Sequence record: PZ386957.1
Origin: a phage
Reading direction: 5' to 3' (one strand)
Length of the DNA: 64,000 nt
In this document: positions 3,104-55,246 of the stretch, piece after piece
How the letters are laid out: each line of letters begins with the position of its first letter
Numbering within the stretch: the stretch's first letter is position 1
Notes under the pieces: generated by a model
The model's input: the letters and a program-made list of their open reading frames with translations, nothing else
Database searches by the model: none
What the model was told of the DNA's origin: nothing
Translations under genes and position numbers: made by a program

Positions 3104-3132
3104 AGTATAACGGGGATTTCTCCCCGCGTCAA
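3104..3132 (-). promoter_or_regulatory. Sigma70-like promoter, TTGACG-17-TATACT, spacer is inverted repeat CGGGGAGAAATCCCCG
   Basis: Read on minus strand directly after the gp47 stop; followed by RBS GGAGG and ATG of 2831-3094. Confidence 0.6.
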
Positions 3133-4158
3133 CTAATTTTTTGCGCTATTTACTTCGGCTAAAAGTTCATCAGAAATACGCTTGACCGCCGCAAGTTCTT
3201 CCGGTTCTAGGTTTTGTTCTTCCAGATATTCATAGACCATCTGAATAGTGCTTTTAACCTCAATAACACCAGTTTCCTGTGATGCGCTACTCTCCAGCTT
3301 ATGGACCACTTTTAGCTTGTGTACAACGGCCTCTAACGCGCTTTCTAACTTAGTTAACCCATTATCAGCGACCGTTGCGATAAGACGCACACTAAGCCCC
3401 TTATAGCGTTCTACATCGATTTTATCATCTGACGGGTAAGTGATACGCACATGATAAGTTTTGTCGTTCTGGATAAACTCTTTTTTGTGTGTATCGGTAT
3501 CAAATACCCAAAAACCACGCGGATCATTTTCGTCACCAGCCGTTAGTGTGTATGGTGTACCGATATACGTTACGTTACCGCCATCACTGATAGTATGAAA
3601 GTGACCAGAAAACACTTCACGGTATTTCTTGAGGAAGTCCGCGCTATAACCTTCGGATTTTAACCCTTTATAGAAATAGTAACCGGACAATTCCCAATGA
3701 CCTACACAATATTCGCTAAATGAATTTTGAATAAACTCTAAAACCTCGGATTTATTGTCATCACAAAACCACGGGAACAGGTCGAATGATACCCCGTCAA
3801 AGCTAACGGTTTCCGGCTTATCAATGACCTTAATGCAATCATACTGGCTTAACACTTCACGCGGTGCGTTAGGCTGGATCTTGTTTCGTTTAAACATATC
3901 ATGATTGCCTACCGTGATATAACAGGTGATTCCTGCCTCTTCCAGTAATGGGATGACCTTAGTACGGTTAAATTTCATGGTTTCATGAGTTATCGCCTTG
4001 CGGCAATCAAACCAATCCCCTGTCTGAATCCATGTCTTAATATCATGTTCTTTTGAGTATTCAACCGCTTTCTTGATGGTATCAAGAATATAATCATGTA
4101 CCCACGGATCATCGCCACCGATACCAGTATGCAGATCACCCAAAAGCAAAATTTTCAT
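3133..4158 (-). CDS. 47: Recombination endonuclease subunit gp47 (SbcD/Mre11-like phosphoesterase)
   Basis: 341 aa; calcineurin-like motifs LGDLHTG, TGDWFD, GNHDMF; T4 gp47 is about 339 aa. Confidence 0.9.
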   Translation of the reverse strand: MKILLLGDLHTGIGGDDPWVHDYILDTIKKAVEYSKEHDIKTWIQTGDWFDCRKAITHETMKFNRTKVIPLLEEAGITCYITVGNHDMFKRNKIQPNAPREVLSQYDCIKVIDKPETVSFDGVSFDLFPWFCDDNKSEVLEFIQNSFSEYCVGHWELSGYYFYKGLKSEGYSADFLKKYREVFSGHFHTISDGGNVTYIGTPYTLTAGDENDPRGFWVFDTDTHKKEFIQNDKTYHVRITYPSDDKIDVERYKGLSVRLIATVADNGLTKLESALEAVVHKLKVVHKLESSASQETGVIEVKSTIQMVYEYLEEQNLEPEELAAVKRISDELLAEVNSAKN

Positions 4159-4197
4159 AGTCTCTTCCTCTCTTCGTTTTCGATGCTCTCACTATAT

Positions 4198-4226
4198 CAT
4201 AGAAAAATAAAAAGGGAAACCCCTTT
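4198..4226 (-). terminator. Putative intrinsic terminator (weak stem)
   Basis: Hairpin AAAGGG-GTTT-CCCTTT followed by TTATTTTT on minus strand. Confidence 0.4.
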
Positions 4227-4248
4227 CAGAGTCTCCCTTATAAAGCCA

Positions 4249-4536
4249 TTACAGCATACTTAATACCGTTTGACGTGTACTAACCCACATAGCGGAAAGC
4301 AGTTCTGGAGTGTGTGGCTGTTTGTAGATATCACGTAATTTTCCGATAGCGTAGATATACGCATCACGGTTATCATCGATGATAGCTTGTTCAGCCCACC
4401 GCTTAAGGCGTGCAATCTCTCGCGAGTTCTTACGCAAGATCTTTTCCGCTTTCTTAGCGGCTTTCGCCTCTAGTTCTGCTTGTACTTTGTCTACTTCATT
4501 CACTACAATCTGGTCATGTTGTTCATCGTAAGTCAT
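4249..4536 (-). CDS. Hypothetical protein
   Basis: 95-aa ORF in the slot where T4 carries a-gt; charged/helical composition. Confidence 0.5.
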   Translation of the reverse strand: MTYDEQHDQIVVNEVDKVQAELEAKAAKKAEKILRKNSREIARLKRWAEQAIIDDNRDAYIYAIGKLRDIYKQPHTPELLSAMWVSTRQTVLSML

Positions 4537-4537
4537 A

Positions 4538-4771
4538 TTATTTTCCTTCTGGGATATAGTCGATGATTAAAGAAAATTCATCTTCTGATACATTATAGCT
4601 ATGTGAGATTGTACCCGTCAAGACCTCAAGATCCGGTGACTTGATATTACACGGATCGATAATCACCGGAACGCCGCAATCTCTCAAAAATAATTTGGCG
4701 AAATACGGCACAAGGTCAGTTTCAAACTCTGCTTCTTCCAGCAAACGGGAAATATTAATTTTCAATCTCAT
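4538..4771 (-). CDS. Hypothetical protein
   Basis: 77-aa ORF between previous ORF and gene 55. Confidence 0.45.
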
Positions 4772-5288
4772 AGAATTGGTCCAGGCTAGGCAATTCCTCG
4801 GTCAATACATCTTCAACCTTCGGCGCTTTCGGCTTATTGACCGATTCCTCGTAATTGTTGATCTTATCGTAAATGTCCTGAATGAATGCCTCATCAGCAA
4901 TCTGGCACATATCAGCGTCGCGTTCGTCATATACATGATGCACAAAATACTTATATTTTGCGGCTGTCGCTGTTCTTTCTTTTTTAATGCGCTGTACAAA
5001 GGCATTAAAGCACGCTTGCGTAATGTAAGCATGAGGATTTTTATACTTTGTCTCGTCAAAATTAATCAAACCTTTGACCGCCGCTTCGATTCCATCGTCG
5101 ATCATTTCTTCGCGCCATGTTTGACTATAACCAGAAAAGTTAAAACGCCGTGATAGATTTTTAGAGATTTGCATAATTGCTAGACCGATTTGATCGCTCA
5201 TTGGAACTTGTCGACCTTCGGCTGCAATTCGCTGTTTCCAACGACAAATTTCTTCGTAAAGTTCTTTATTGTTTACATAATCAGACAC
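4755..5288 (-). CDS. 55: Late-transcription sigma factor gp55
   Basis: 177 aa; size, position after 47 and sequence character match T4 gp55 (185 aa). Confidence 0.8.
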
Positions 5289-5328: not shown

Positions 5329-6801
5329 CTATCTCCATTCTCGTTTATATTTGCGGTCTTTATCAATCCACTGTTGCACCATCTCTATTGATTCAGGATC
5401 ATTTTCATCAAGGGTAAACCCTTTCTTCTTCATGCGGTATTTGAAACCATCAAATCTTTTAGCCTCATCACTGGTCATATTATGTTTCTTTTTAAATGAT
5501 TGCTTACTCTTACGTTGACCACAATCAAGCTGAATCATTTTATCAGTGATAATTTTTGCATTAGGGAAAAATTCTTTGATGTATTCAGCCAAAGGCCAAT
5601 CAGGAACATAGAGATTTACTTCCTGTGTTGATTCGTTATCACGCAAATTGCTACGGAGACACAACTGAAAAGCCGAATCAAGATAATCGGTTAAATGACG
5701 CGCATCAACAAAATCATTGACAGGAAGATCACAACTACGTGCTAATCCGCGAAGAATATCAATTTCCCACGGACGAGCGTTATAGCTATACAATACCGCA
5801 ACATTAGTATGATGTATATAATAGTTAAGACCATGTGGACCATATGATAAGCGAACACCTTTACCGCGTGTTGCGTATTCACGGTCTTTGTTTACTGTAT
5901 AGATGAAATTATCACCACATTCATTTATAACCAGGTCAATCATCTTTTCAAATGTACCATTAACCTTAGATTGATTTCGTGACCATCTCTCGGAATCGGT
6001 CATCAAAATGATGTTAACCCGGTGAGTATTCTTATACTCAGTAAAATACAATCTAGATCTTAACTCACTTTCGACAAATTCGCAACCAACATAATGTTTA
6101 AGATACTTCCCGCTATATGTTCGTTCCAGTTCAGCACTTGCTATAGTGACTTTCTTGAAATTTTCCCATACATGATGCTTTGTGTCGTTCAGGAAAATAA
6201 CCCGTGATCCATTTTCTCGATGGCCATCATTATGCTTCACCATAACGCGAATCTTACTATTCAATAACGCTCCATAAAGCGATGTAAGCGCACTATCGAT
6301 ATAATCTAACCCTTTCTTACCCTCATCTAGTTTTTGCTTGATATAGGGCGTTTCAGAAGGTTTTAGAATTAATTCCTGCATATCTTCCGATTTATCGGCT
6401 ATTGGTTCGCAATATTTCAGAATCATACCCAAATTAGATTTAAGTGCGCATTCTTCAAACTCAACCAATTTAGGAACTTCGTCAATATAAAGGCTATAAT
6501 CATTGAATAGCTTAGAAGGTTCCAGCGAGGCAAGCGCGTTATGTGTAATAAACAACACATCAATATCATCTCTAAGAGATTGAATAATAGACGCTTGCAC
6601 TGTCATGTAACTTTTTAGTTTGCTGTCACTATCAATCAAGACAGCACGACCGCCTAACTTCATAAACTTATTGTAAGATTGTTCACTTAAAACACGCGTT
6701 GGTGAAGCAATAACCGCTTTTTCTTTTGTCTCTAGGACGTGGGAAAGAATTGCGTCAGTCTTCCCCGCTGCTGGTAATGCGATTAATGTTTCAATTTTCA
6801 T
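5329..6801 (-). CDS. P-loop NTPase of unknown function (helicase-like N-terminus, basic C-terminal tail)
   Basis: 490 aa; N-terminal Walker A-like LPAAGKTDA, Walker B-like LYIDE; Lys/Arg-rich C-terminus. Confidence 0.6.
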   Translation of the reverse strand: MKIETLIALPAAGKTDAILSHVLETKEKAVIASPTRVLSEQSYNKFMKLGGRAVLIDSDSKLKSYMTVQASIIQSLRDDIDVLFITHNALASLEPSKLFNDYSLYIDEVPKLVEFEECALKSNLGMILKYCEPIADKSEDMQELILKPSETPYIKQKLDEGKKGLDYIDSALTSLYGALLNSKIRVMVKHNDGHRENGSRVIFLNDTKHHVWENFKKVTIASAELERTYSGKYLKHYVGCEFVESELRSRLYFTEYKNTHRVNIILMTDSERWSRNQSKVNGTFEKMIDLVINECGDNFIYTVNKDREYATRGKGVRLSYGPHGLNYYIHHTNVAVLYSYNARPWEIDILRGLARSCDLPVNDFVDARHLTDYLDSAFQLCLRSNLRDNESTQEVNLYVPDWPLAEYIKEFFPNAKIITDKMIQLDCGQRKSKQSFKKKHNMTSDEAKRFDGFKYRMKKKGFTLDENDPESIEMVQQWIDKDRKYKREWR

Positions 6802-9327: not shown

Positions 9328-9856
9328 TTTTGATACGTGATTCTAATTGGATCATACGGTCGCGCGTTTGCTTGTATTCACGGATAGCACCGATCCGGCT
9401 AGGCATACCATCTAGGACGCTCTTAATCCCTTCTAGGGTAGTGATTTTAGCAATGCTATTATGTAACCCCATCTTATCGATCAACTGAATGTCGTAGGCT
9501 TCCATAAGCAGTCCCAGACGTTCTAAGGTTAAATCTTGTTCTTTATCTTCTTCCGATTCTGGAATCTTAGGTTCAATAGTAACTTCGGTAAAGAAACGAC
9601 GCTCACCACCCCAAAACCACACACCGGAACAGTCAATAGGGGATTCTTTTAAAGTCATGGAGTCGAAATCACTACCAATAATAGTAATTTCTCTAACATC
9701 ACCATCGTCGTCAATGTCTTCTACCTTAAACGGGCGACCAGCCAACAGGTCCATAATACATCTGTTAATACCAGACGAAAATTTAGTCAGTTCGGCTTTC
9801 GACGCTTCGCATTCAATCTTGTAAGTTTTACCAACTTCCCATTCCATAATAATCAC
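9317..9856 (-). CDS. Paralog-family protein (GKTY module)
   Basis: 179 aa; EWEVGKTYKIECEASKAEL; ERRFFTEV motif; coiled-coil tail. Confidence 0.6.
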   Translation of the reverse strand: MIIMEWEVGKTYKIECEASKAELTKFSSGINRCIMDLLAGRPFKVEDIDDDGDVREITIIGSDFDSMTLKESPIDCSGVWFWGGERRFFTEVTIEPKIPESEEDKEQDLTLERLGLLMEAYDIQLIDKMGLHNSIAKITTLEGIKSVLDGMPSRIGAIREYKQTRDRMIQLESRIKNER

Positions 9857-9857
9857 C

Positions 9858-10367
9858 TCAAATAATTTTCACTGGAATACTATTAACAATCTTGTATTGT
9901 ACTTGATTGTCAGACCCCCGCCACGGCTTCTTCGTTGGCATATCTTTAATATAACGCCCATCGATGAACATGTCAACTGATTCTACAATTTTTCTTTGCT
10001 CATCATTCAATTGGTCAAGGGTATAACCGGACCATAGCCAAATATCTTTATTTGGCATCCATGATTTTACTTCATCGATGATCCGCTGTACACCCTTTAA
10101 ATTGCGTTTATACAGTGGATCACCACCTAAGAATGTTAGCCCCTGAATAAAATCAGGTCTAAGCAGATCCAGAATCAATCCCATTGTATCATCGGTGAAT
10201 GGTTCCCCGTTCTTAGGATTGAGTAGGCTAGCATTAAAGCAACCATCACATGCGTGTGAACATCCGGTAACGTAAAGGGAGACTCTCACTCCCTCACCGT
10301 TAACCATATCACAATCTTTAATATCGGCATAGCGTAGTTTGCCGTATGTATCAGAACTCATATTCAA
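9858..10367 (-). CDS. nrdG: Anaerobic ribonucleotide reductase activating protein NrdG (radical SAM)
   Basis: 169 aa; CSHACDGC (CxxxCxxC) radical-SAM cluster motif; adjacent to nrdD. Confidence 0.9.
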   Translation of the reverse strand: MNMSSDTYGKLRYADIKDCDMVNGEGVRVSLYVTGCSHACDGCFNASLLNPKNGEPFTDDTMGLILDLLRPDFIQGLTFLGGDPLYKRNLKGVQRIIDEVKSWMPNKDIWLWSGYTLDQLNDEQRKIVESVDMFIDGRYIKDMPTKKPWRGSDNQVQYKIVNSIPVKII

Positions 10368-10545: not shown

Positions 10546-10574
10546 AGTATAGGGGATCTCGCGATCCCCGTCAA
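10546..10574 (-). promoter_or_regulatory. Promoter TTGACG-17-TATACT, spacer palindrome GGGGATCGCGAGATCCCC
   Basis: Minus-strand read; leader ends in AGGAGAATCAAAT-ATG. Confidence 0.6.
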
Positions 10575-14193: not shown

Positions 14194-14221
14194 TATTATA
14201 GCATACTCCCTTCGCATGTCA
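14194..14221 (-). promoter_or_regulatory. Promoter TTGACA-16-TATAAT, -10 inside inverted repeat GGGAGTAT...ATACTCCC
   Basis: Minus-strand read upstream of 13670-14164. Confidence 0.65.
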
Positions 14222-15397
14222 AGCACTAACTTTTTTCTTTACTGCTTTCACCTTCTGGCGAATTGCTCGAATCTCTTCGATCTCTTTTTCAGTCTCTTTA
14301 ACAATTTCTTTGCGATTCTGAATATCTGTATCGAGATTATCATCAAGTTTAGGCAGCATGTCAATCAAGAACTTTTTAAAGTCTTTCAGGTTTCGAATAA
14401 CAGCACCTTCGCCCATTACCGCAACACCCACACCATCCGGCAGATCACCAAACAGCTTAACCAGTTCAGACAGATGATCATGATCTTCTAGTGCTTCTTC
14501 CGGTTCAGATGGCAGTTCAACAAAGTTATAACGTTCATCATTGCTGATCAAGTGATACCAGCAAAGCCCGAAAGATTTCGGTGTATATTCTACACCATCA
14601 ATTTCAACCGCGTCAACACTTCCATAATCATCTACTTTAGTTACCTTAAATCCTTGTCCCAGCTTTTGAACAATTTCAACAACATGACTTGATACAGTTT
14701 CAGCGGTAAACCAATATGGCAAATTATGCTGATTTGGCTTGTAGCGTTCACCTACTTTAAATCTCTGACCATCCGCTTGCATAGAATGAAATTGTTGTTT
14801 CGTGATTTCCGCGAAGTATTCAAATTCGCCACCATCAAACACACAAGCCCATTGATCACAAAAACGATCTGCCTTAACAGTTTCACCTTTCGCGGTGATC
14901 ATGGTAGCTGATCCGTGCAATTCTTCTTCAACTAAAAAGCCATATTCGACAAAATCAACAAGTTTCATAGCTTCTTTGTGATCTGGATCATGCTCTCCCC
15001 AGAATCGCTTAAATTCTTGCAAACCTTCTGGGGTAAACGAATAACATTTACCTTTTTCAAAGTAAGTCGGCATTGCATCCTCTTTCTTGTTCATCGCTTC
15101 GTATGCCTCTTTTGAGATGCGTTTAAAGTATTTACGCTCATTGTGCATAATCATAGTAGCCCAATAATCAACAATATCATTAGCGGAATAAACTACATCT
15201 CCAGCTTCAATAGTAATAACATGACCGTGGTCATCTTTTTCTAATACTTTAAAGCCCTTTTCTACGATTTCAGCAACCCGAATATGACCACGGCGCGAAG
15301 CATCGGTCAGAATAATTGAATAGCGAGAAAAGTCTAGAAACTCATCTTTACCGCCTTCACGGAATGCATAGTAATGACCTTCAAAGAATTTAGCCAT
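14219..15397 (-). CDS. Paralog-family protein with multiple tandem modules
   Basis: 392 aa; repeated GFKV..D..G.V..IE.DG..Y units; NERKYFKRISK motif; coiled-coil tail. Confidence 0.6.
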   Translation of the reverse strand: MAKFFEGHYYAFREGGKDEFLDFSRYSIILTDASRRGHIRVAEIVEKGFKVLEKDDHGHVITIEAGDVVYSANDIVDYWATMIMHNERKYFKRISKEAYEAMNKKEDAMPTYFEKGKCYSFTPEGLQEFKRFWGEHDPDHKEAMKLVDFVEYGFLVEEELHGSATMITAKGETVKADRFCDQWACVFDGGEFEYFAEITKQQFHSMQADGQRFKVGERYKPNQHNLPYWFTAETVSSHVVEIVQKLGQGFKVTKVDDYGSVDAVEIDGVEYTPKSFGLCWYHLISNDERYNFVELPSEPEEALEDHDHLSELVKLFGDLPDGVGVAVMGEGAVIRNLKDFKKFLIDMLPKLDDNLDTDIQNRKEIVKETEKEIEEIRAIRQKVKAVKKKVSA

Positions 15398-15428: not shown

Positions 15429-15457
15429 ATCTTACTACTCCCGTTTCATCATGTCAA
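15429..15457 (-). promoter_or_regulatory. Promoter TTGACA-17-TAAGAT, -10 inside inverted repeat GGGAGTAG...TACTCCC
   Basis: Minus-strand read upstream of 14219-15397. Confidence 0.6.
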
Positions 15458-16338: not shown

Positions 16339-16368
16339 ATTTTACTACTCCCATTTCTTATTGTCAAC
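16339..16368 (-). promoter_or_regulatory. Promoter TTGACA-17-TAAAAT, -10 inside inverted repeat GGGAGTAG...TACTCCC
   Basis: Minus-strand read upstream of 16035-16307. Confidence 0.6.
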
Positions 16369-16868: not shown

Positions 16869-17162
16869 TTAACCATGAATCTTGTTTTTGACTACAAAGG
16901 ATCGGAACTCATCAAAGCCACCAATATAATCACCATCATAGAAAATCTGCGGCATGGTGGCAATAACTTCTACCCCTGCGCGATCCTGAATATCGGCAAT
17001 GATAGAATCAATCTTTACAGGGCGACCGTTTTCGTCCACACCATCATTAACCGGAATGTAGATGTAAGGGATCTTACGCGCTTCACAAAGGCGCTTTGCA
17101 TTCTGGCAATACTTACAGTTGTAACCTTCAAAACCAAAAATTTCTACCATGTTATACCTCAA
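16869..17162 (-). CDS. nrdC: Thioredoxin/glutaredoxin NrdC
   Basis: CKYCQNAKRL active site and MPQIF..IGGFD, matching T4 NrdC pattern. Confidence 0.85.
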   Translation of the reverse strand: MRYNMVEIFGFEGYNCKYCQNAKRLCEARKIPYIYIPVNDGVDENGRPVKIDSIIADIQDRAGVEVIATMPQIFYDGDYIGGFDEFRSFVVKNKIHG

Positions 17163-17971
17163 TCTACGTTAGTTACATAAACTTCTTGCGTATCAGAAGA
17201 CTTGCCACCTGAACGATCTAGGCAATAGGTCTTATTCAACAGGACGCAGTTTAAATCATTCCGCTTGATAAAATCAAGCAAATGGTTGTTAACTTTCCCT
17301 TTGTGGTGAGTAACATTGCTTAATCCAAACTTAGTACCGCTAGACATTAATGATTCTATCCACATGTAGAATTTAATCTCTTCTTCTTCACTCCAGAACT
17401 TATTATATTCTGCCGACGTGATCCAATATGGCGGGTCCAAATAAACGAAATCACCGGGCAAGATCTCGATCTCGTCATAACGACCAGACGTAAAATTGAT
17501 TCGACCGTCTTTGTTTTCTTCTTTAAAATTCAGGACACGCTCTACCGCGTTTTCGTTAAAAGTCCGGCGACCAAAATTAGCATTAAATTCGCCCTTTCGG
17601 TTATGGCGGTTAATGTTGCTAAAACTATGCTGAATCAGAACAAACAGAGATAGCGGATCTGGATTCTCGTTATACTTCTTGCGGAATGCCATATAAGAAT
17701 CTTTATCATCACGAGACAAACCATTCTCGGCAATAATCCGCTTGATCGTAGAAACCGGATCAGGGCACTCGTCAATCGCTTTGTAAGCATCAATTAAGCG
17801 GTGATCATAGTCATTAGCCAGAACATCCCCTTCGACGTACAGAGACACGCTCAAACCGCCACAAAAGGCATCGACAAAGCGGTTATAGTGCTTAGGGAAA
17901 TACTTACTAACACCTGGCAATAACTTTTCCTTATTGCCAGTATAGGGAATTAAACCTAATGCTTTCTTCAT
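17159..17971 (-). CDS. dam: DNA adenine methyltransferase Dam (alpha-class N6-adenine MTase)
   Basis: 270 aa; N-terminal FCGGLSV SAM motif, C-terminal DPPY catalytic motif, YNKFWSEEEE; closely matches T4 Dam. Confidence 0.9.
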   Translation of the reverse strand: MKKALGLIPYTGNKEKLLPGVSKYFPKHYNRFVDAFCGGLSVSLYVEGDVLANDYDHRLIDAYKAIDECPDPVSTIKRIIAENGLSRDDKDSYMAFRKKYNENPDPLSLFVLIQHSFSNINRHNRKGEFNANFGRRTFNENAVERVLNFKEENKDGRINFTSGRYDEIEILPGDFVYLDPPYWITSAEYNKFWSEEEEIKFYMWIESLMSSGTKFGLSNVTHHKGKVNNHLLDFIKRNDLNCVLLNKTYCLDRSGGKSSDTQEVYVTNVD

Positions 17972-19974: not shown

Positions 19975-20197
19975 AGTATGCTTTTTCTACATACTCGCCA
20001 TTGATCCAAGAGGCAGTAACAATCATAGTTGTCCAGTTAGATCCACTCTCAACAGCAAAGGTTTTGATGCCCAGCTTCGCTGCTAAGTCGAAAGCAAACC
20101 GGACGCAACCACGGCAGGAAGTGATATTGGAAGTTTTGATTTTGATGCCACCGCGAGTTTTGGAAATTTCTACTTTAGCGAAAGACAAGTTGCTCAT
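19919..20197 (-). CDS. Hypothetical protein
   Basis: 92-aa ORF after promoter/leader at 20240-20268. Confidence 0.5.
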   Translation of the reverse strand: MSNLSFAKVEISKTRGGIKIKTSNITSCRGCVRFAFDLAAKLGIKTFAVESGSNWTTMIVTASWINGEYVEKAYFDIFYDYEEKCFYALQDM

Positions 20198-20239
20198 TTT
20201 GATTCTCCTTAAGAAAGTGTGTTTCGTTTTGATGTGTGT

Positions 20240-20268
20240 AGTATAGGGGATACGTGATCCCCTGTCAA
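20240..20268 (-). promoter_or_regulatory. Promoter TTGACA-17-TATACT, spacer palindrome GGGGAT-CACGT-ATCCCC, CATCAAAACGAAACAC leader
   Basis: Minus-strand read upstream of 19919-20197. Confidence 0.6.
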
Positions 20269-20276
20269 CAACTTTT

Positions 20277-20606
20277 TTATGATTTTAGTGAATTAACCAC
20301 TACATCAAAATGATGTACAGAGCACACCTTACGAAACACATATTCATCATGTTTAGGAATCGCCCCTAACCGCTCTATTTCGCTTGCTGACACGATAAAC
20401 TGTTTATCTGGTGCATATGCCTTGCGTGCTTCAACAACGCACGGGAAACGCGTTTCAGAGAGTTCTGGATAGTTTTCTGAATCCATCAGGACAATGAATA
20501 CCCTGTTACATTGATTGTAGAATCCTGTTTTTGATTTCATCAAGTTTTCTTCTCTGTACAATTCGTGCAATCTTCCTTTCATGATTTCGTTGGTTCTTGT
20601 CTTCAC
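20277..20606 (-). CDS. Hypothetical protein
   Basis: 109-aa ORF; start may be an internal Met. Confidence 0.45.
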   Translation of the reverse strand: MKTRTNEIMKGRLHELYREENLMKSKTGFYNQCNRVFIVLMDSENYPELSETRFPCVVEARKAYAPDKQFIVSASEIERLGAIPKHDEYVFRKVCSVHHFDVVVNSLKS

Positions 20607-21990: not shown

Positions 21991-22809
21991 TTACACGCGA
22001 GCACCGTAGATCGTGCCAACTTTAGTCCATGTTGGGGCATTACCAGTAACAGCTTTACCAGCAGCACCACCAGGCCACGGAACACCAGCGCGACCAGTAC
22101 CATCATACCATGAGTCGTTAGCCTTAGCACCTGCTTGACCAGCGTCACCACCGTTACCAGCATAATATATATTACCGTTATACGATCCTCTACCCGGCGC
22201 GGTATATGTAGCAGCGGTTGACCCTATTTCCATGTTGGAATATGCACCAGCCGCACCATAAGGACGACCACCACCACCACCCATTGACAACCCAATGATC
22301 GGATAATATGAGTAATAAGCACCGCCACCGCCACCGCCACCGCCAGCGATGACACCATTATTTGTGATGCGTAGACGTGTACCGATACCATTATTGATAG
22401 CAGTCCCGCCAGCTTGTCCAGGACCAGTGCTGGAATTAGTACCGCCATCACCACCCTTACCACCACGACCCCAAACATGGACACCTGGGTTAATGTTTAA
22501 TGTAATATACTCATTAGCAAGATCGCTAGGAAAATCGAGACACGGAACACTAGCAGAATGAGAAACAATATCCCCGGTAATGGTAATTACTACCGGAGTA
22601 GACCCGTGTGATCTTAGATAACTAATCAAAGTATCTTTATTGTAACTATGGTTAGACCCAATACTATAATAAACCTCTTTAGAACGTCCCACCATCGCAC
22701 TCATCCAAGCCGGACGACCTAAGCGTACAGCTTCCATTGCGGCACTCATCCACCGTTGGCCTGTTTCATTAACGGCAGATGATCCTACCCATCCAGAAGA
22801 TATTGCCAT
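21991..22809 (-). CDS. Glycine-rich protein (N-terminal globular region + Gly/Tyr-rich low-complexity region)
   Basis: 272 aa; runs GGGGGGGG, GGKGGDGG, MGGGGGRPYGAAG; correct strand and terminator; alt-frame ORFs over it are GC artefacts. Confidence 0.6.
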   Translation of the reverse strand: MAISSGWVGSSAVNETGQRWMSAAMEAVRLGRPAWMSAMVGRSKEVYYSIGSNHSYNKDTLISYLRSHGSTPVVITITGDIVSHSASVPCLDFPSDLANEYITLNINPGVHVWGRGGKGGDGGTNSSTGPGQAGGTAINNGIGTRLRITNNGVIAGGGGGGGGAYYSYYPIIGLSMGGGGGRPYGAAGAYSNMEIGSTAATYTAPGRGSYNGNIYYAGNGGDAGQAGAKANDSWYDGTGRAGVPWPGGAAGKAVTGNAPTWTKVGTIYGARV

Positions 22810-23085: not shown

Positions 23086-23124
23086 TTTGATTCTCCTAGA
23101 AAGTGTCGTGTTTCGATGTGTGCA

Positions 23125-23152
23125 TTATGATATATCCAGATCCGGCTGTCAA
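23125..23152 (-). promoter_or_regulatory. Promoter TTGACA-17-CATAAT with GCACACATCGAAACACGAC leader
   Basis: Minus-strand read upstream of 22864-23085. Confidence 0.6.
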
Positions 23153-24443: not shown

Positions 24444-26591
24444 TTATTCTCGTCCATTTGTATAGTAGTGTTTGAATCGCCCATAGCCAGTTTCAATAGA
24501 CATATCTTTCTGTCGGACAATCGCCCAATAGCCATTGCATGAATCTTGCAAATACAGATCCTTACCTTTTAGGAACTCGTTAAAGATCGTAATCTGCCAA
24601 TCATAATAGACGGCATCAGCGAGACTATCCATCCAACCATGTGGATCATCCATCAGTTCGACAAGCTCATCGATAACCCAATATGGACACGGGCTAAATT
24701 TACCTTTACTAAAATCATTGAACAAGGTAACAAGTTTAACTTCCGGTCGCGGTTCATCCGGCTGCACAGGTCGTTTATTAACCACAACCTGTACATATTT
24801 CGTATACCCGATGATTTCGCCGGAGTCAAGAGTATCGTTATTGTTCTTATCTGCATAAGCCACAAAACGATAAACACCGGAATCATTTATTGTTGCATTA
24901 GCTTTACGGTAAATCGGCACGCGAGAATCAGCAATAGGTAATTTAACACCAGCTTTGCTAAACTCATAGGTAGGTACATAATCAGCCGGAGGCTTCAACA
25001 TGGTAGCCTCAAGAACAAGCGGTTCACCTTCCGTAATCTGTACCGGATGCGGACCATCAAATTCCATATTAGGCACTACCTCAACATGGTAGGTAGCGCG
25101 TGCTGCAATATCGTAATCGGTATGCGCACTATATGGATCTTTACTCGGACTATCGCGGTATTCATGCGACCAGATACCGTTATGGTCTCGGTCTGCGGAA
25201 TCAGTGATCTTATACTCTTTCGCTTCAATAGGCAAATCTGCGACTTTAACATCATTTTTCAGAATTACTAATGAACGCGTTTGAGTCGGATCACCGCTTG
25301 CTGGCGGTTCTGGATCGACGATCTTAATTACAATCGGTTCACCAATCTCAATATTACGATAATCATATTCTTTATCGTAAATGTCAAGCATACGGCGGTC
25401 ATAGAACAAAGGACGTCCGGTCGGTGTTCTCTGCGGATCATCATCACGCGCGGGAGCCACCAACAGTTGAAGTGCTACGCTATCGTCATATTGCAATTCA
25501 TTAAGCGTAATGCGGTCATATCCCGGATCACCGTATTTCTTGCTTTGGAGTTGCTTACCGCCTAGCATCCACGTAAAGTAAACATTATTTGCAAGCATAC
25601 CATAATGGCGGTTCCATGAGTTATCCGCTGGTAATACTGGCATATCAAAGTTTACTTCCGATCCAGAAGGATAACGAAATTCGATTGCTGCAAAGTCATT
25701 ACGGAAAAATTCGTTTTCCTTAACTTTGACAGTAAATCGGTGTCGCTGCCCTTCAATGAATGATTCACCAGCACCAGGTCCATTAACCACTTTATAGGAG
25801 CGAACGCAAGCTACATATTCACCTGCATCATTTTCGGTAGCATGTTTGGTTGCATAGAGTGTTTTGTTGGTAGACTCATAAACAAGAGTACCGTCGCCAC
25901 GCTCTAAGCGATACCTTACAATGGTATGCTCTGCGTCATTAGGCGCATCATCTTCTACCGTGAAATAAGCTGGTGCATATTTCTGGACATTGAATACTGC
26001 GGGATTTTCCTTAATATCGGCAACAAACGGATAAACAAATTTAACGTCGCCGTGTTCGTCGCTCAATTCCATTCGGTAATTACCGGAAAATTCAGGCCAT
26101 GCAAATTTTGCAATTTTAAATTCACGATGGTCTAATCCCAGATCACCATCAATGGAATCAACGAGGCCATTATTATAATACAGGTCAACCGAAATATTAG
26201 CCGGAATATTACTACGGAAAACAATTTTTGCTTTAATTTCATCACCAATATCAAAAGACGTTGGAGGATGAACATATTCGACAAAGACATTATCGAATAA
26301 ACTAAAGGTAAAGTTTTCCGTGCCGATATCTACGGATTCGCCAGAAAAATTTTCATCATCTTGCGCATAACCACGAAGGTTAACAGACCATCCGGTTTTA
26401 TCCTCTTCTTTCACTGAATCCAATACATAGGAAGGAGTTGCAGTAGTCGCAATGACCTTATTGTCTTTCTTCCACGTAAAACCCTTTTTAGGTTTAGTTG
26501 GTTCAGGGGATTCCCCAGCAAGGGAACAAGCGAAAGTATGAGGAAGCCAAATGGTAGTATTAACGCTAGTATCTTTATTTTCTACTGGCAT
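24444..26591 (-). CDS. Large protein with Ig-like repeat signatures
   Basis: 715 aa; repeated D.G.Y.C motifs (DAGEYVACV, DSGVYRFVA) typical of Ig-like beta-sandwich domains. Confidence 0.6.
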   Translation of the reverse strand: MPVENKDTSVNTTIWLPHTFACSLAGESPEPTKPKKGFTWKKDNKVIATTATPSYVLDSVKEEDKTGWSVNLRGYAQDDENFSGESVDIGTENFTFSLFDNVFVEYVHPPTSFDIGDEIKAKIVFRSNIPANISVDLYYNNGLVDSIDGDLGLDHREFKIAKFAWPEFSGNYRMELSDEHGDVKFVYPFVADIKENPAVFNVQKYAPAYFTVEDDAPNDAEHTIVRYRLERGDGTLVYESTNKTLYATKHATENDAGEYVACVRSYKVVNGPGAGESFIEGQRHRFTVKVKENEFFRNDFAAIEFRYPSGSEVNFDMPVLPADNSWNRHYGMLANNVYFTWMLGGKQLQSKKYGDPGYDRITLNELQYDDSVALQLLVAPARDDDPQRTPTGRPLFYDRRMLDIYDKEYDYRNIEIGEPIVIKIVDPEPPASGDPTQTRSLVILKNDVKVADLPIEAKEYKITDSADRDHNGIWSHEYRDSPSKDPYSAHTDYDIAARATYHVEVVPNMEFDGPHPVQITEGEPLVLEATMLKPPADYVPTYEFSKAGVKLPIADSRVPIYRKANATINDSGVYRFVAYADKNNNDTLDSGEIIGYTKYVQVVVNKRPVQPDEPRPEVKLVTLFNDFSKGKFSPCPYWVIDELVELMDDPHGWMDSLADAVYYDWQITIFNEFLKGKDLYLQDSCNGYWAIVRQKDMSIETGYGRFKHYYTNGRE

Positions 26592-26612
26592 ATTATCCCC
26601 TTATTGCTGACA

Positions 26613-27011
26613 CTAAGCCAGCTTAGTGAGTTTATAGATGGTTTTAAAGCATAGAACTTTAATATCGTCTAAAACGCTCTGTAGAGAGCTATCAACATCA
26701 TTATAAATCTCACTTGCCATTTGCGCTAATTCCTGCAAATAGGCAACTTCGCTAATCTCCTTTCGGACGACCAACGTCGGTTGATATCTTCCGGTAATAC
26801 CGATATTAGTTTCCGTGAAAGTATCAACCAATTCTTGCATTTCAAGATAGAACTCTTCTAGCGCCTTATGTTTTGCGTAAGACCCCGGACCAGTTACCCC
26901 AAAATGCGCAGAATGCATATAAGTAACGCTCATTAGGCATTCACCAATAAAGCGGTCCACATTATTAGCCTTTCCTTCATCGGAAGTTTTTCTAAATTCG
27001 CTGAATTTCAA
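26613..27011 (-). CDS. Hypothetical protein
   Basis: 132-aa ORF. Confidence 0.5.
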   Translation of the reverse strand: MKFSEFRKTSDEGKANNVDRFIGECLMSVTYMHSAHFGVTGPGSYAKHKALEEFYLEMQELVDTFTETNIGITGRYQPTLVVRKEISEVAYLQELAQMASEIYNDVDSSLQSVLDDIKVLCFKTIYKLTKLA

Positions 27012-30727: not shown

Positions 30728-30757
30728 ATATTACTACCCCCCGTTTCATGTTGTCAA
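30728..30757 (-). promoter_or_regulatory. Promoter TTGACA-18-TAATAT, -10 inside inverted repeat GGGGGTAG...TACCCCC
   Basis: Minus-strand read upstream of 30389-30700. Confidence 0.55.
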
Positions 30758-33099: not shown

Positions 33100-33489
33100 T
33101 TATTTTGGATCTGGGTAAGCAGAACTCAGCAATTCAAAATGCACACCGTCTTTGAATGCCAAAAAATCCCCGCCCCATTTAATCGGAATATTCAATTCCT
33201 TACTAGCTTGTTTAAATGCATCAGCGATCATTCGGTAATATTTCATGTTCCATGTATCCTTATCTTTCGGATACGCTACAACATCAACCGCGAAGCCATG
33301 AAGATGGCGAGATTTCATAGTCTTAGACTTACCTTCCGCAAAATATTTCTTCTGCGTTTCCAGACTGCGCACACCTTCCGTAATGCCAAAATCTACAGGA
33401 GTTAATTCAAGTGCGCGAGTCGCCACCTTAACCAGATCTGGATGCACACCAACAAGTCGGTCTTTACTTCTTTGAGATAATTTAAACAT
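33100..33489 (-). CDS. Peptidase M15-type cell-wall hydrolase (putative endolysin, L-Ala-D-Glu peptidase-like)
   Basis: 129 aa; zinc-peptidase motifs SRHLHGFAVD and DGVHFE. Confidence 0.7.
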   Translation of the reverse strand: MFKLSQRSKDRLVGVHPDLVKVATRALELTPVDFGITEGVRSLETQKKYFAEGKSKTMKSRHLHGFAVDVVAYPKDKDTWNMKYYRMIADAFKQASKELNIPIKWGGDFLAFKDGVHFELLSSAYPDPK

Positions 33490-36767: not shown

Positions 36768-36796
36768 ATTGTAGGGGAGTTGTCCTCCCCTGTCAA
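36768..36796 (-). promoter_or_regulatory. Promoter TTGACA-17-TACAAT, spacer palindrome GGGGAG-GACAA-CTCCCC
   Basis: Minus-strand read upstream of 36517-36738. Confidence 0.6.
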
Positions 36797-38599: not shown

Positions 38600-38628
38600 A
38601 TCTTACTACCCCCGTTTCATGTTGTCAA
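38600..38628 (-). promoter_or_regulatory. Promoter TTGACA-17-TAAGAT, -10 inside inverted repeat GGGGGTAG...TACCCCC
   Basis: Minus-strand read upstream of the 56-aa peptide gene. Confidence 0.6.
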
Positions 38629-52803: not shown

Positions 52804-52838
52804 AAAAGCCAATTCGTAAGAGTTGGCTTTTTCTATTT
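52804..52838 (+). terminator. Intrinsic terminator after gene 8
   Basis: GCCAA...TTGGC hairpin then TTTTTCTATTTTG. Confidence 0.6.
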
Positions 52839-52844
52839 TGGGTG

Positions 52845-52872
52845 TTGACAATCTTATCTGGCAAGGTATAAT
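52845..52872 (+). promoter_or_regulatory. Consensus sigma70 promoter TTGACA-16-TATAAT driving the methyltransferase cassette
   Basis: Perfect hexamers between the gp8 terminator and the 52902 ATG; RBS GGAGG. Confidence 0.7.
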
Positions 52873-52901: not shown

Positions 52902-53159
52902 ATGGCACGTCGTAAATTTACAGATAATTGTGAAGCAATTCAGGTATCCCCTTGTGGTTGGGAGGTGATCGCGAACGGTGAAAAGATCGGAGAGATCATC
53001 GATCATACTCATTCATCACTAGCCGATTACACCGATGAACTATGGGAGGGTATTAATTGCGCTAACGTAACCAAACGATTCAAGACTATTGATGAAGCTA
53101 TACATTTTGTGTATAATCCAACTTTCGGTATGTGGAGTGATAGAAAATGGCACGCGTAA
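52902..53159 (+). CDS. Hypothetical protein (cassette gene 1, MAR start)
   Basis: 85 aa; first gene after promoter 52845-52872; overlaps next gene. Confidence 0.55.
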   Translation: MARRKFTDNCEAIQVSPCGWEVIANGEKIGEIIDHTHSSLADYTDELWEGINCANVTKRFKTIDEAIHFVYNPTFGMWSDRKWHA

Positions 53160-53476
53160 ATATTAAACTGCATTACACAATGAGTAAACCAAAACATCCA
53201 ATGCATAAAGTGTTTTGGGGCTTGCATCTTCAAGAAAAATGGCATGATAACTATTGGTTTTGTGACCATGATAAGAAGTGGCATTCTCAAGATGAAGTTA
53301 ATGCGATGATGGAACAGGGTATCAAATTTAATTACTCTAATTATGACCATAACATTACTTGTATTCGAAAATTGAAACGGTTTATTCGAAAGAATCCGCA
53401 ATTTAAAAACTTTGTGTTCTTTATGTCTCATGTTTATTTGGGGCATAGCGTTACCATCACTGCAAAGGTTAAATAA
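53147..53476 (+). CDS. Hypothetical protein (cassette gene 2, His/Trp-rich)
   Basis: 109 aa; coupled to flanking genes. Confidence 0.55.
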   Translation: MARVNIKLHYTMSKPKHPMHKVFWGLHLQEKWHDNYWFCDHDKKWHSQDEVNAMMEQGIKFNYSNYDHNITCIRKLKRFIRKNPQFKNFVFFMSHVYLGHSVTITAKVK

Positions 53477-54315
53477 TGGCACGACTTTCTAAACAAGAAC
53501 AAAAATTACACGACCGAGCAATGGAGTTGATCAATTCAGATCGTCAATTGACATATGAAGAAAAAGAATTTTGCTATAACAACTATCAGGGCGATGGTCT
53601 AGGCGGTTCAGGTGCATTCTTTACACCAGAAGGGCTTGCCTGGGATTTTACCATTGATGCACATTGTACAGGAAAGGTATTAGATCTTTGTGCTGGGATC
53701 GGTCGATTGTCTTTCTGTATGTTACATCGTTGCAAACCAGAAAAGATCGTATGCGTCGAACTCAATCCAGAATTTGCGCGGATCGGTAAACGACTATTAC
53801 CGGAAGCAGAATGGATCACAAGCGATGTATTCGAATTCGAATCAAGTGAAAAGTTTGATGTTGTGATCAGCAATCCACCTTTCGGAAAAATCAATACAAC
53901 CGACACAAAGGATGTATTCGAATACACTGGCGGTGAGTTTGAATTTAAGGTTATGACATTAGGCCAGAAGTTTGCCGATGTAGGTTATTTTATTGTTCCT
54001 GCTGGTTCCGCTGGTTTTGCCTATTCCGGTCGGCCTTATTATGATGGTACAGTAAAATCTAATAAATACCTAAAGTGGAGTAAGCAAACTGGTTTAGTGA
54101 CTTATGCCGGATGTGGGATTGATACTTCAATATATCGTGACGAATGGCATAGCACAAATGTACTAACGGAAGTCGTCGAAGTCAGATATTACGAAAAAGA
54201 AGCCGTAGAAGCAACTAAATCACAACCTAACGAACAAATAGAAGAAAGTAAGGCAATCACCTTACCTGATACAGAGAACGCGTCAGTGACGCTCTCAGAC
54301 TTGTTTGACATTTAA
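53476..54315 (+). CDS. Gamma-class SAM-dependent methyltransferase (probable N6-adenine DNA MTase)
   Basis: 279 aa; motif X GAFFTPEGLA, motif I VLDLCAGIGRLS, motif IV ISNPPFG in gamma order; terminator at 54322-54347. Confidence 0.75.
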   Translation: MARLSKQEQKLHDRAMELINSDRQLTYEEKEFCYNNYQGDGLGGSGAFFTPEGLAWDFTIDAHCTGKVLDLCAGIGRLSFCMLHRCKPEKIVCVELNPEFARIGKRLLPEAEWITSDVFEFESSEKFDVVISNPPFGKINTTDTKDVFEYTGGEFEFKVMTLGQKFADVGYFIVPAGSAGFAYSGRPYYDGTVKSNKYLKWSKQTGLVTYAGCGIDTSIYRDEWHSTNVLTEVVEVRYYEKEAVEATKSQPNEQIEESKAITLPDTENASVTLSDLFDI

Positions 54316-54321
54316 TATTGA

Positions 54322-54347
54322 TAGCCGTCCTTGTGGGCGGCTTTTTT
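54322..54347 (+). terminator. Intrinsic terminator after the methyltransferase gene
   Basis: AGCCGTCC-TTGT-GGGCGGCT then TTTTTTG. Confidence 0.6.
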
Positions 54348-54391: not shown

Positions 54392-55246
54392 ATGGCACAG
54401 ATTCCAAAGAAAAGAATATCGACCGGTATTATCGGAAATCCATCAACGGGTGATATTCTGTACGATGGCGGTATTAAAATAAATGATAACTTTGATTCAA
54501 TTTATGATGCATTTGCCGATCAACGTTTTAATGATATCGACAACGGCGTAGGTAGAATGGTTATTCACGCTACAGGATATTATCAGAAACATACACGACA
54601 AAGTTATGCAGGGTCGGCAGTAGAGATTGGTAGTTTACATGATATTGATACTACTCAAGGCGCATTAGTAGTTATTCTCCCGAAAGCTAAGGTTGGCGAA
54701 GGTGTTGTTTTCATAAATAGTAACGGTAGCTTTTCTACAACCACACCACTAAACATTCGAGCACAAGCAGGTGATGCTATTGTTGGTTATTCTGGCGATG
54801 CAGCTATTACCCAACCTTACAGCAAAGTTACGGTATGGTGTACGGCAGTTGAAGGTAACAGAATGACGTGGCGCGTTGGTATTGAAAGTATGTTCACCGA
54901 CACAACTACACCAGTAGATAAAACGGTTAACGTAACTGGCGTGGCTACCAACGTAGCAATTGCTTCAAAGACAGAATACAACACAATTAAACTTTTGACA
55001 ACCGCTACAAATACGTCTGGCACTAAAATGCGGTCCAGCGAAACGCTGTTACTAATTGACGCGAAAGCAGGACAAGTTTATGCCACAGAATATGGCGTAC
55101 TACAGAAAACCGAAGATGAACTATACACGGTTCGTTATTTTATCGGTTCCGGTGATAAGGTATATGCAGAATATAAAGCCGTAGGTGAAAACATTCGATT
55201 AGCAATTAAGGCTACGGACACAGTTAAAATCGGGGTTGCTACATGA
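54392..55246 (+). CDS. 9: Baseplate wedge/tail-fibre socket protein gp9
   Basis: 284 aa (T4 gp9 is 288 aa); TATAAATA late promoter at 54348-54355. Confidence 0.8.
   Translation: MAQIPKKRISTGIIGNPSTGDILYDGGIKINDNFDSIYDAFADQRFNDIDNGVGRMVIHATGYYQKHTRQSYAGSAVEIGSLHDIDTTQGALVVILPKAKVGEGVVFINSNGSFSTTTPLNIRAQAGDAIVGYSGDAAITQPYSKVTVWCTAVEGNRMTWRVGIESMFTDTTTPVDKTVNVTGVATNVAIASKTEYNTIKLLTTATNTSGTKMRSSETLLLIDAKAGQVYATEYGVLQKTEDELYTVRYFIGSGDKVYAEYKAVGENIRLAIKATDTVKIGVAT

Follow-up and report, generated by a model that had tools for sequence, protein, structure and literature searches.

The 64,000-nucleotide stretch of phage DNA analysed here (record PZ386957.1; hereafter the window) carries two methyltransferase genes, namely a dam gene and a gene for an orphan enzyme, referred to below as methylase 2, whose C-terminus resembles the sliding-clamp-binding tail of the phage DNA polymerase. 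We propose, with a probability of about 0.68, that the source is a Krischvirus with cytosine DNA that possesses a GATC-specific Dam and, in addition, a second orphan adenine-N6 methylase tethered to the sliding clamp. A second methylase with the same clamp-binding peptide as the phage's own polymerase is apparently new. The literature searched, the coverage of which was incomplete, yielded no account of a phage or bacterial methyltransferase that binds a clamp, and the only methyltransferase precedent in a review of clamps is the eukaryotic pair DNMT1-PCNA (PMC9690074).

The features of the methylase 2 gene on which this proposal is built are as follows.

53476–54315, plus strand: methylase 2 (ortholog of RB49p143), 279 amino acids, an orphan amino-methyltransferase with an NPPF motif and the gamma order of motifs, assigned from that order
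53611–53628, plus strand: motif X, GAFFTP, residues 46–51, with G46, F49, T50 and P51 invariant in the family
53680–53712, plus strand: motif I, LDLCAGIGRLS, residues 69–79, a sequence motif
53872–53883, plus strand: catalytic motif IV, NPPF, residues 133–136, with N133, P134 and F136 invariant and P135 nearly so
54187–54288, plus strand: acidic linker, residues 238–271, divergent in sequence among homologs and predicted to be disordered (predicted local distance difference test score, pLDDT, below 50 for residues 246–273)
54289–54312, plus strand: C-terminal octapeptide TLSDLFDI, a putative gp45 sliding-clamp-binding motif, recognized by its likeness to the end of RB49 gp43

The tail of methylase 2 was compared with the C-termini of the replication proteins of RB49. 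Methylase 2 ends in ...ASVTLSDLFDI in the window and in ...SGTLSDLFDI in RB49, and the DNA polymerase gp43 of RB49 ends in ...KVASLTDLFDI. The terminal octapeptides of the methylase and of gp43 are thus identical at 6 of 8 positions, and their last five residues are all the same. Among the 1035 open reading frames (ORFs) of RB49, taken from stop to stop with at least 50 amino acids, the methylase alone exceeded 3/8 identity to the gp43 octapeptide. The known gp45-binding epitopes of T4 gp43 (...KASLDFLFG) and gp55 (...SLDFLYEAND) lie at the same terminal position. According to published work, gp45 ligands are hydrophobic-acidic extreme C-termini that are carried on divergent unstructured linkers and are interchangeable between gp43, gp55 and gp33 (PMC2988020). 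Methylase 2 resembles these ligands in having a short hydrophobic-acidic terminal peptide on a divergent flexible linker, whereas the known ones belong to a polymerase, a late sigma factor and a co-activator, and no methyltransferase has been described among them. In an AlphaFold2 model of the protein, residues 246–279 were predicted to be disordered. Homologs with 64–68% identity (among those labelled P0001–P0004) retain the ending as TLTDLFDI or SLSMFDI, and their linkers vary in both length and sequence. The alignment also showed that the prophage copies extend no further than about residue 238, and that those of large lytic phages add the acidic linker and the conserved terminal peptide. 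The likeness of these endings leads us to favour, with some caution, the binding of the methylase 2 tail to gp45. The tail had been overlooked in an earlier note on this DNA, which was made from the sequence alone.

The wider family was then examined, using a distant homolog that ends in NQLSLF (P0120) as the query, which yielded 119 diverse family members. A motif of the form Qxx[LM]F was present within the last 18 residues of 70 of the 119 homologs (QLSLF in 15, QLDLF in 6, QLTLF in 5, and others), and 42 of the 119 matched the stricter pattern QL-x-LF. For comparison, the consensus beta-clamp-binding motif is a C-terminal QL(S/D)LF (PMC9690074). When the last 40 residues were shuffled in 500 trials, Qxx[LM]F appeared 0.2 times on average and twice at most, and in the remaining approximately 240 residues of all 119 proteins it occurred once. 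A C-terminal extension is present in 102 of the 119 members, among them all 70 motif carriers, and the motif is absent from the 17 short members. It would seem, then, that the family has borne a putative clamp ligand at its C-terminus time and again, one that in Krischvirus is of the gp45/gp43 type, and this is the strongest argument for a DNA-acting, clamp-tethered enzyme. We lean slightly towards the view that the phrog_3820 family would be recruited to replicating DNA by a C-terminal peptide matched to the clamp in use, that is, a gp43-like tail in T4-type phages and QL[SD]LF in phages and prophages that use the host replisome.

Regarding the chemistry of methylase 2, the motifs run in the order X, I, II and IV, with an acidic motif II (VCVELN, residues 92–97), which is the gamma permutation of a class-I methyltransferase; the invariance of its residues was judged in 34 aligned homologs. 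The gamma-class N6-adenine DNA methyltransferases, such as M.TaqI, the Eco57I-type enzymes and Type I HsdM, have motif X (G-x-F-F-T-P), motif I and NPPF in the same order, and methylase 2 just passes the Pfam cut-off for Eco57I (27.1 against 25.3). It differs from them in being much smaller, with neither a large target-recognition domain nor a separate S subunit, in having no restriction partner, in carrying a putative clamp-binding tail, and in falling below the Pfam N6_Mtase cut-off (16.7 against 20.4). Methylase 2 is quite probably a DNA adenine methylase, and adenine-N6 chemistry is likely. The earlier note had called the product of 53476–54315 a gamma-class adenine methyltransferase; the gamma order is borne out by motifs X, I and NPPF, and the word adenine is a reasonable inference.

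Two groups of observations weigh against our proposal, the first of which concerns the substrate. The best Pfam match of methylase 2 was the generic MTS domain, the small domain of RsmC and PrmC; its top NCBIfam match was PrmC (37 against a cut-off of 199), RsmC scored 29 against 295, and its best matches among PDB sequences were RsmC, PH1948 and TaqI, all of them weak. The assignment of a substrate by these searches was rejected, since they returned only generic or sub-threshold RsmC, PrmC and TaqI matches. The AlphaFold2 model, which was built on the alignment and is confident over residues 1–245 (mean pLDDT 83.8), was compared with known folds, and the DNA N6-adenine enzymes TaqI, BseCI, HsdM, PacII, CamA and MmeI scored nearly as well as RNA and protein methyltransferases; the modelled fold by itself does not separate a DNA from an RNA substrate. 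Furthermore, the region that follows the catalytic core is small, comprising about 100 residues, and offers no guide to the target specificity of methylase 2.

It follows from these matches that an enzyme acting on RNA or protein has to be considered, that is, one that modifies the host translation apparatus through N6-methyladenosine or N2-methylguanosine in ribosomal RNA (rRNA) or transfer RNA, or through a glutamine of a release factor or ribosomal protein. The RB49 record describes the ortholog of methylase 2 as 'similar to rRNA guanine-N2-methyltransferase', and in some relatives its counterpart bears the annotation 'release factor glutamine methyltransferase'. We regard this alternative as unlikely. 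The scores of the RNA and protein families lie far under their curated cut-offs, and the DNA N6-adenine methyltransferases are nearly as close by fold. A clamp-binding tail, present in the window protein and in its beta-clamp version in most of the homologs surveyed above, is sensible only for an enzyme that acts on DNA. Moreover, the family occurs as orphan genes at the ends of prophages and in lytic phages, a distribution that anti-restriction DNA methylases typically show.

The second group of observations concerns the tail. The comparison with gp43 uses RB49, since the window phage's own gp43 and gp45 genes lie outside the window. In Slopekvirus and Pseudotevenvirus, the methylase tails (...SDLFTFTIE and ...QNLFTFTIE) share only a [DN]-x(0-1)-LF core with the gp43 of the same phages (...SLNDLFGDW and ...SLNTLFGDDW). 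A strict co-variation of methylase and gp43 tails beyond Krischvirus was rejected, as it is exact in Krischvirus alone and partial elsewhere. In addition, the copies of Aeromonas T4-type phages (among them CC2), phiM7, Vibrio phage 13VV501A, Yersinia phage fHe-Yen9-04 and the enterobacterial prophages have no tail, so that tethering is not obligatory for the family.

These observations speak for another reading, in which methylase 2 would be an ordinary, free orphan DNA methylase whose gp43-like tail arose by chance, is a scar of recombination, or serves another partner, for example as a degradation or packaging signal: outside Krischvirus the two tails differ, FTF[RT]IE standing against LFGD(D)W, and in much of the family the tail is lacking altogether. 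We consider such an enzyme rather improbable. The 6/8 identity to the gp43 end is unique among the 1035 ORFs, the terminal motif is kept while the linker diverges, and the beta-clamp pentapeptide is about 350-fold more frequent than in shuffled tails and occupies the same position in distant homologs. The architecture of the tail also fits the published definition of a gp45 ligand (PMC2988020). A clamp-tethered DNA methylase thus remains our preferred reading.

The catalytic core of methylase 2, of about 240 residues, is followed by an acidic linker that is predicted to be disordered and then by TLSDLFDI, which copies the gp45-binding tail of the polymerase. In the mechanism that we propose, this tail would dock the enzyme on gp45 clamps, either those loaded on the replicating phage DNA or those that remain on it afterwards. 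Newly made DNA could in this way be methylated processively and completely ahead of packaging, and the methylation, probably at a short target sequence, would shield the cytosine-unmodified DNA from host restriction. We infer from sequence and model all four elements of this scheme: the DNA substrate, adenine N6 as the methylated atom, the binding of gp45 and the biological role.

The closest functional parallel is DNMT1-PCNA, in which a DNA methyltransferase is likewise brought to newly replicated DNA via a short clamp-binding motif (PMC9690074). DNMT1 is unrelated to methylase 2, methylates cytosine at C5 and has its PIP box in the N-terminal region, whereas the tail of methylase 2 is C-terminal; the clamp is the eukaryotic PCNA in the one case and phage gp45 or the bacterial beta clamp in the other; and DNMT1 serves epigenetic maintenance, in contrast to the probable anti-restriction role of methylase 2. 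If our proposal is correct, phrog_3820 would represent a prokaryotic and viral counterpart of DNMT1-PCNA, performing replication-coupled processive methylation, and cytosine-unmodified phages would be able to complete their protective methylation despite very fast DNA synthesis. The clamp tail would offer a concrete mechanism by which methylation keeps in step with replication in phages that lack base hypermodification, and it would add a methyltransferase to the short roster of gp45 and beta-clamp clients. It would also argue against the 'PrmC' and 'rRNA methylase' annotations found on many of the 287 phage records with a member of the family. Methylase 2 is in addition a candidate cause of the differences in restriction resistance among therapeutic Krischvirus, Slopekvirus and Pseudotevenvirus phages.

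The methylase 2 gene comes third and last among the ORFs of a self-contained cassette, bounded by a terminator and promoter on one side and a terminator on the other, which is inserted between the late baseplate genes 8 and 9. The other elements of this cassette are listed here.

52804–52831, plus strand: terminator-like hairpin after gene 8, forming the upstream boundary of the cassette, recognized from the sequence
52845–52872, plus strand: perfect-consensus sigma70 early-type promoter of the three-gene cassette, TTGACA-16-TATAAT, with a 12/12 hexamer match
52902–53159, plus strand: cassette ORF 1, 85 amino acids, matching phrog_16603
53147–53476, plus strand: cassette ORF 2, 109 amino acids, matching phrog_12630, its stop codon overlapping the methylase start (TAATG)
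54323–54342, plus strand: terminator-like hairpin that closes the cassette upstream of gene 9 (54392–55246), recognized from the sequence

The placement of the methylase 2 cassette between genes 8 and 9 is apparently new. Because the cassette has its own sigma70 promoter and terminators, methylase 2 is probably made early, although its gene lies among late baseplate genes. The combination of terminator and promoter flanking small accessory genes is a design shared with the PeSL cassettes of RB49 and Phi1 (PMC2839356, PMC4122927).

Besides the 287 phage records, in which members occur in Pseudotevenvirus (RB43-like), Slopekvirus (KP15, KP27 and Matisse), Aeromonas T4-type phages, phiM7 and some jumbo phages, homologs of methylase 2 with about 55–60% identity are common in Enterobacteriaceae chromosomes. 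The bacterial homologs lie at the outer prophage edge, after the tail-tip and lysozyme genes, and no restriction-enzyme partner was present near them in the genomic context examined. This absence supports the orphan status of methylase 2, and the context yields no clue to its specificity. The family was overlooked in the paper on DNA modification of KP15 and KP27. Three copies of 389 amino acids, namely that of Dickeya phage JA33 (L018) together with P0164 and P0189, have an extra C-terminal domain instead of the clamp tail; in P0164 and P0189 the C-terminal fusion is PF01555, an N6/N4 DNA methylase domain.

The other methyltransferase of the window is Dam, for which the following features were identified.

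17159–17971, minus strand: dam, alpha-class (D12) DNA adenine-N6 methyltransferase, ortholog of T4 Dam, 270 amino acids, assigned from profiles and T4 Dam homology
17849–17866, minus strand: motif I, FCGGLS, residues 36–41, for S-adenosylmethionine binding, a sequence motif
17564–17623, minus strand: DNA-recognition hairpin, residues 117–136, FSNINRHNRKGEFNANFGRR, located by alignments to 1yfj and 2g1p
17426–17437, minus strand: catalytic motif IV, DPPY, residues 179–182, a sequence motif

The Dam protein matched Pfam PF02086 (D12) at 1.4e-30 and 107.3 bits (cut-off 22) and NCBIfam TIGR00571 at 147.6 bits (cut-off 114.85). It aligned over its full length with the T4 Dam structures 1yfj and 1q0s (E = 7e-65), showed 46% identity to T4 Dam in tblastn, and has an RB49 ortholog that is annotated as dam in the RB49 record. 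Motif I, the recognition hairpin and DPPY follow one another in the alpha permutation. All this confirms the alpha-class Dam that had been reported at this position. In order to examine its specificity, the residues by which the E. coli enzyme (EcoDam) contacts GATC (PMC4417163) were located in the alignments to 2g1p and 1yfj. R122 corresponds to R124 of EcoDam and R116 of T4 Dam, the Gua4 discriminator, and R136 to R130 of T4 Dam; F117 is the intercalating aromatic residue, and S118 and I120 are conserved or conservative. The sole changed contact position is N132, which stands in place of P134 in EcoDam and P126 in T4 Dam. GATC specificity is thus well supported, because the contact residues of the recognition hairpin are largely conserved, and the window Dam is very probably a T4-type alpha-class GATC-specific adenine methylase.

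Compared with T4 Dam (M.EcoT4Dam; 1Q0S, 1YFJ), the window enzyme has the same alpha order (FxGxG, target-recognition hairpin, DPPY) and keeps the contacts made by T4 R116, R130, F111 and S112, and both are orphan enzymes of T4-type phages. Apart from the replacement of T4 P126 by asparagine, the two differ in gene position, the window dam adjoining nrdC and gene 49 and T4 dam lying between genes 56 and 61, and in substrate, which is cytosine DNA for the window Dam and DNA with glucosylated 5-hydroxymethylcytosine (hmC) for T4 Dam. The window Dam would be expressed from early leftward transcripts. No avoidance of GATC was detected in the window, where 354 sites gave an observed/expected ratio of 1.01 under a second-order Markov model; against the expectation from base composition, the ratio was 1.5.

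To place the window among known phages, three parts of it were compared with 50,697 phage records by megablast. Each part retrieved the same 59 records, all of them Krischvirus, including RB49, Phi1, JSE, ECD7 and GEC-3S, with identities of 88–96%, and the gene layout at all three window sites is common to these 59 records. The window is colinear with positions 22,207–84,983 of RB49, spanning gene 46 to gene 17, at about 85–95% nucleotide identity over aligned blocks. Judged by these matches, its source is a Krischvirus, a T4-type phage of the RB49/Phi1/JSE group.

The region in which T4 encodes its alpha-glucosyltransferase has the following genes in the window.

3133–4158, minus strand: gene 47 (SbcD-like nuclease subunit), 56% identity to T4 gp47, E = 3e-116
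4249–4536, minus strand: a-gt.4 ortholog (DUF2654), 95 amino acids, Pfam 5.8e-23, T4 a-gt.4 E = 7e-13, same name in RB49
4538–4771, minus strand: a-gt.5 ortholog, 77 amino acids, T4 a-gt.5 E = 6e-8, phrog_1169, same name in RB49
4755–5288, minus strand: gene 55 (late sigma factor), 61% identity to T4 gp55, its C-terminus being a clamp-binding epitope by the definition in PMC2988020

Between genes 47 and 55 there are only two ORFs, the orthologs of a-gt.4 and a-gt.5, and the T4 genes 47.1, a-gt, mobB, a-gt.2 and a-gt.3 are missing from this slot. The earlier statement that the slot holds two small ORFs and no glucosyltransferase was therefore correct. Homologs of T4 gp42, a-gt and b-gt were not found in the window by tblastn (best E of at least 0.2; for gp42, best E = 2.5). 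The earlier note had also suggested a genome-wide search for gene 42 and glycosyltransferases, which was run on the complete genome of RB49. No homolog of a-gt or b-gt was found there (tblastn, E of at least 0.5), and gp42 gave a single weak match, to the thymidylate synthase td (E = 0.006), which is the expected distant paralogy. No glucosyltransferase product is listed among the 299 annotated features of RB49, and a single ORF of 62 amino acids occupies the interval from uvsX to gene 43 in RB49, which in T4 accommodates b-gt and gene 42.

Published data agree with this gene content. RB49 DNA is cut by HpaII and NheI, which are sensitive to cytosine modification, and the phage has been described as lacking the hydroxymethylase and beta-glucosyltransferase (PMC4041780). 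The DNA of Krischvirus TB34 has canonical cytosines according to high-performance liquid chromatography/mass spectrometry, and according to the same report neither hmC synthases nor DNA glycosyltransferases occur in the genus (PMC13390438). We are thus highly confident that the window lineage is without cytosine hypermodification. The earlier note had suggested methylation rather than, or in addition to, glucosyl-hmC. The first option holds, the genes being absent in the window and in RB49, and the second is not supported, because the hmC genes are absent, RB49 DNA is cut by HpaII and NheI, and the cytosine of TB34 is canonical. Methylation in place of glucosyl-hmC is already established for RB49-type phages, and Dam and the annotated second methylase are likewise known.

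One report could be taken to mean that cytosine is hypermodified by an unrecognised pathway and that methylation is not the main DNA protection: in the DNA of Krischvirus SAP, 5-hydroxymethyldeoxycytidine and its glucosylated and gentiobiosylated derivatives were reported, though the pathway genes were not found (PMC13390438). For the phage studied here we regard this as extremely improbable. TB34, which is 99.96% identical to SAP, had canonical cytosine in the same study, and the modification profile of SAP is that of Tequatrovirus phages from the same collection (PMC13390438); in our reading, a mixed stock would also explain the SAP result. The digestion of RB49 DNA by HpaII and NheI (PMC4041780) and the lack of gp42 and glucosyltransferase homologs in the window and RB49 speak against it as well. 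A modification gene concealed in a segment of about 2 kb that is absent from RB49 was also considered and rejected, as this segment encodes an Ig-like/Hoc-like protein.

Several further observations were made in the RB49 genome (NC_005066.1), mostly in parts that lie outside the window. At 115890–116606, RB49 has a third methyltransferase-like gene, RB49p189 (238 amino acids), whose FPPCTNL and ENP motifs recall those of C5-cytosine methylases. RB49p189 matched phrog_757 'DNA methyltransferase' at 7e-90 and Pfam DNA_methylase at E = 0.059, and returned no match in the PDB sequence search; a firm C5-methylase assignment was rejected, the signal being weak. The count of two methylases given in the earlier note is therefore incomplete for the genome. 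An HNH endonuclease gene, RB49p040 (RB49 26380–26934), lies between gene 47 and a-gt.4 in RB49, where the window has no gene (4159–4248). Gene 56 (RB49 9490–10008), a homolog of the T4 dCTPase/dUTPase gp56 with 49% identity, is kept despite the ordinary-cytosine DNA, and its substrate range may differ from that of T4. The td gene (RB49 136870–138102) is annotated as a thymidylate synthase of 410 amino acids. T4 td has about 286 amino acids, and the difference suggests a large insertion relative to it.

Finally, we examined the GATC sites within promoter palindromes, which the earlier note had proposed to couple promoter activity to Dam methylation. The elements concerned are the following.

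10546–10574, minus strand: PeSL-type early promoter, TTGACG-GGGATCGCGAGATCCCC-TATACT, with two GATC in the spacer stem; the same element is found in RB49 at 33335
20240–20268, minus strand: PeSL-type early promoter, TTGACA-GGGGATCACGTATCCCC-TATACT, with one GATC in the stem, recognized from the sequence
23124–23152, minus strand: promoter-like site, TTGACA-N17-CATAAT, with GATC in an imperfect 10-nucleotide palindrome, recognized from the sequence

GATC is indeed present at both of the palindromes that had been named. The one at 10551–10568 is a true palindrome, forming a hairpin with a 7-bp stem in the 17-nucleotide spacer between the −35 and −10 hexamers, with an AT-rich region upstream; the one at 23136–23145 is imperfect (8/10) and does not stand as a true palindrome. 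PeSL elements, which recur in the genome, combine a sigma70-consensus promoter, AT-rich DNA upstream of it and a stem-loop of the form GGGG...CCCC, and their copies are homologous repeats moved by recombination (PMC2839356). Sites with GGGG...CCCC spacers occur at 3104–3132, 10546–10574, 20240–20268 and 36768–36796 in the window, and 12 are present in RB49. GATC is carried by one sub-family, TTGACA-GGGGATC-N3-GATCCCC-TATACT, to which 2 of the 4 window spacers and 8 of the 12 from RB49 belong; sister sub-families have the stem GGGGAGG...CCTCCCC, which contains no GATC. The window elements are nothing new in kind compared with the PeSL cassettes of RB49 and Phi1, and the stem GATC in one sub-family was previously unremarked. 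The window PeSL at 20194–20278 shares 96.6% identity with an RB49 PeSL that is not syntenic with it (123217–123304), whereas in the syntenic copy of RB49 the loop is different, a pattern consistent with PeSL-mediated exchange or conversion.

The GATC-bearing sub-family is what favours a coupling of PeSL early-promoter activity to the Dam methylation state, which we nevertheless hold to be very unlikely. Matches to sigma70-like promoters, allowing at most 2 mismatches, showed no enrichment of GATC: the window has 10 occurrences where 10.8 would be expected, and RB49 has 28 where 29.7 would be. GATC is thus at background over all promoter-like sites, the outcome that the earlier note itself had set against its proposal. 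The GATC-bearing PeSL copies are homologous repeats and therefore not independent events, the sister stems do without GATC, the sites lie in the spacer outside the −10 and −35 hexamers, and methylation is unmentioned in the PeSL papers. The GATC in promoter palindromes arises as a by-product of a single sub-family of PeSL repeats and gives no evidence of regulation coupled to Dam.

A second class of early promoters was also noticed, in which the hairpin spans the −10 hexamer (GGGAGTAG-TAAxAT-ACTCCC) and does not lie in the spacer; its members are at 14195–14222, 15429–15457, 16339–16367, 30728–30757 and 38600–38628, all on the minus strand. Two long ORFs on the same strand may be added. The one at 24444–26591 encodes 715 amino acids with weak matches to Ig domains and Hoc-like head-decoration proteins; it sits on the early strand in the segment of about 2 kb without RB49 nucleotide match and adjoins a homolog of rI.-1. 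The other, at 5329–6801 beside gene 55, encodes 490 amino acids with a weak match to the N-terminal part of DEAD helicases (phrog_2467), and is kept in RB49 as RB49p044.

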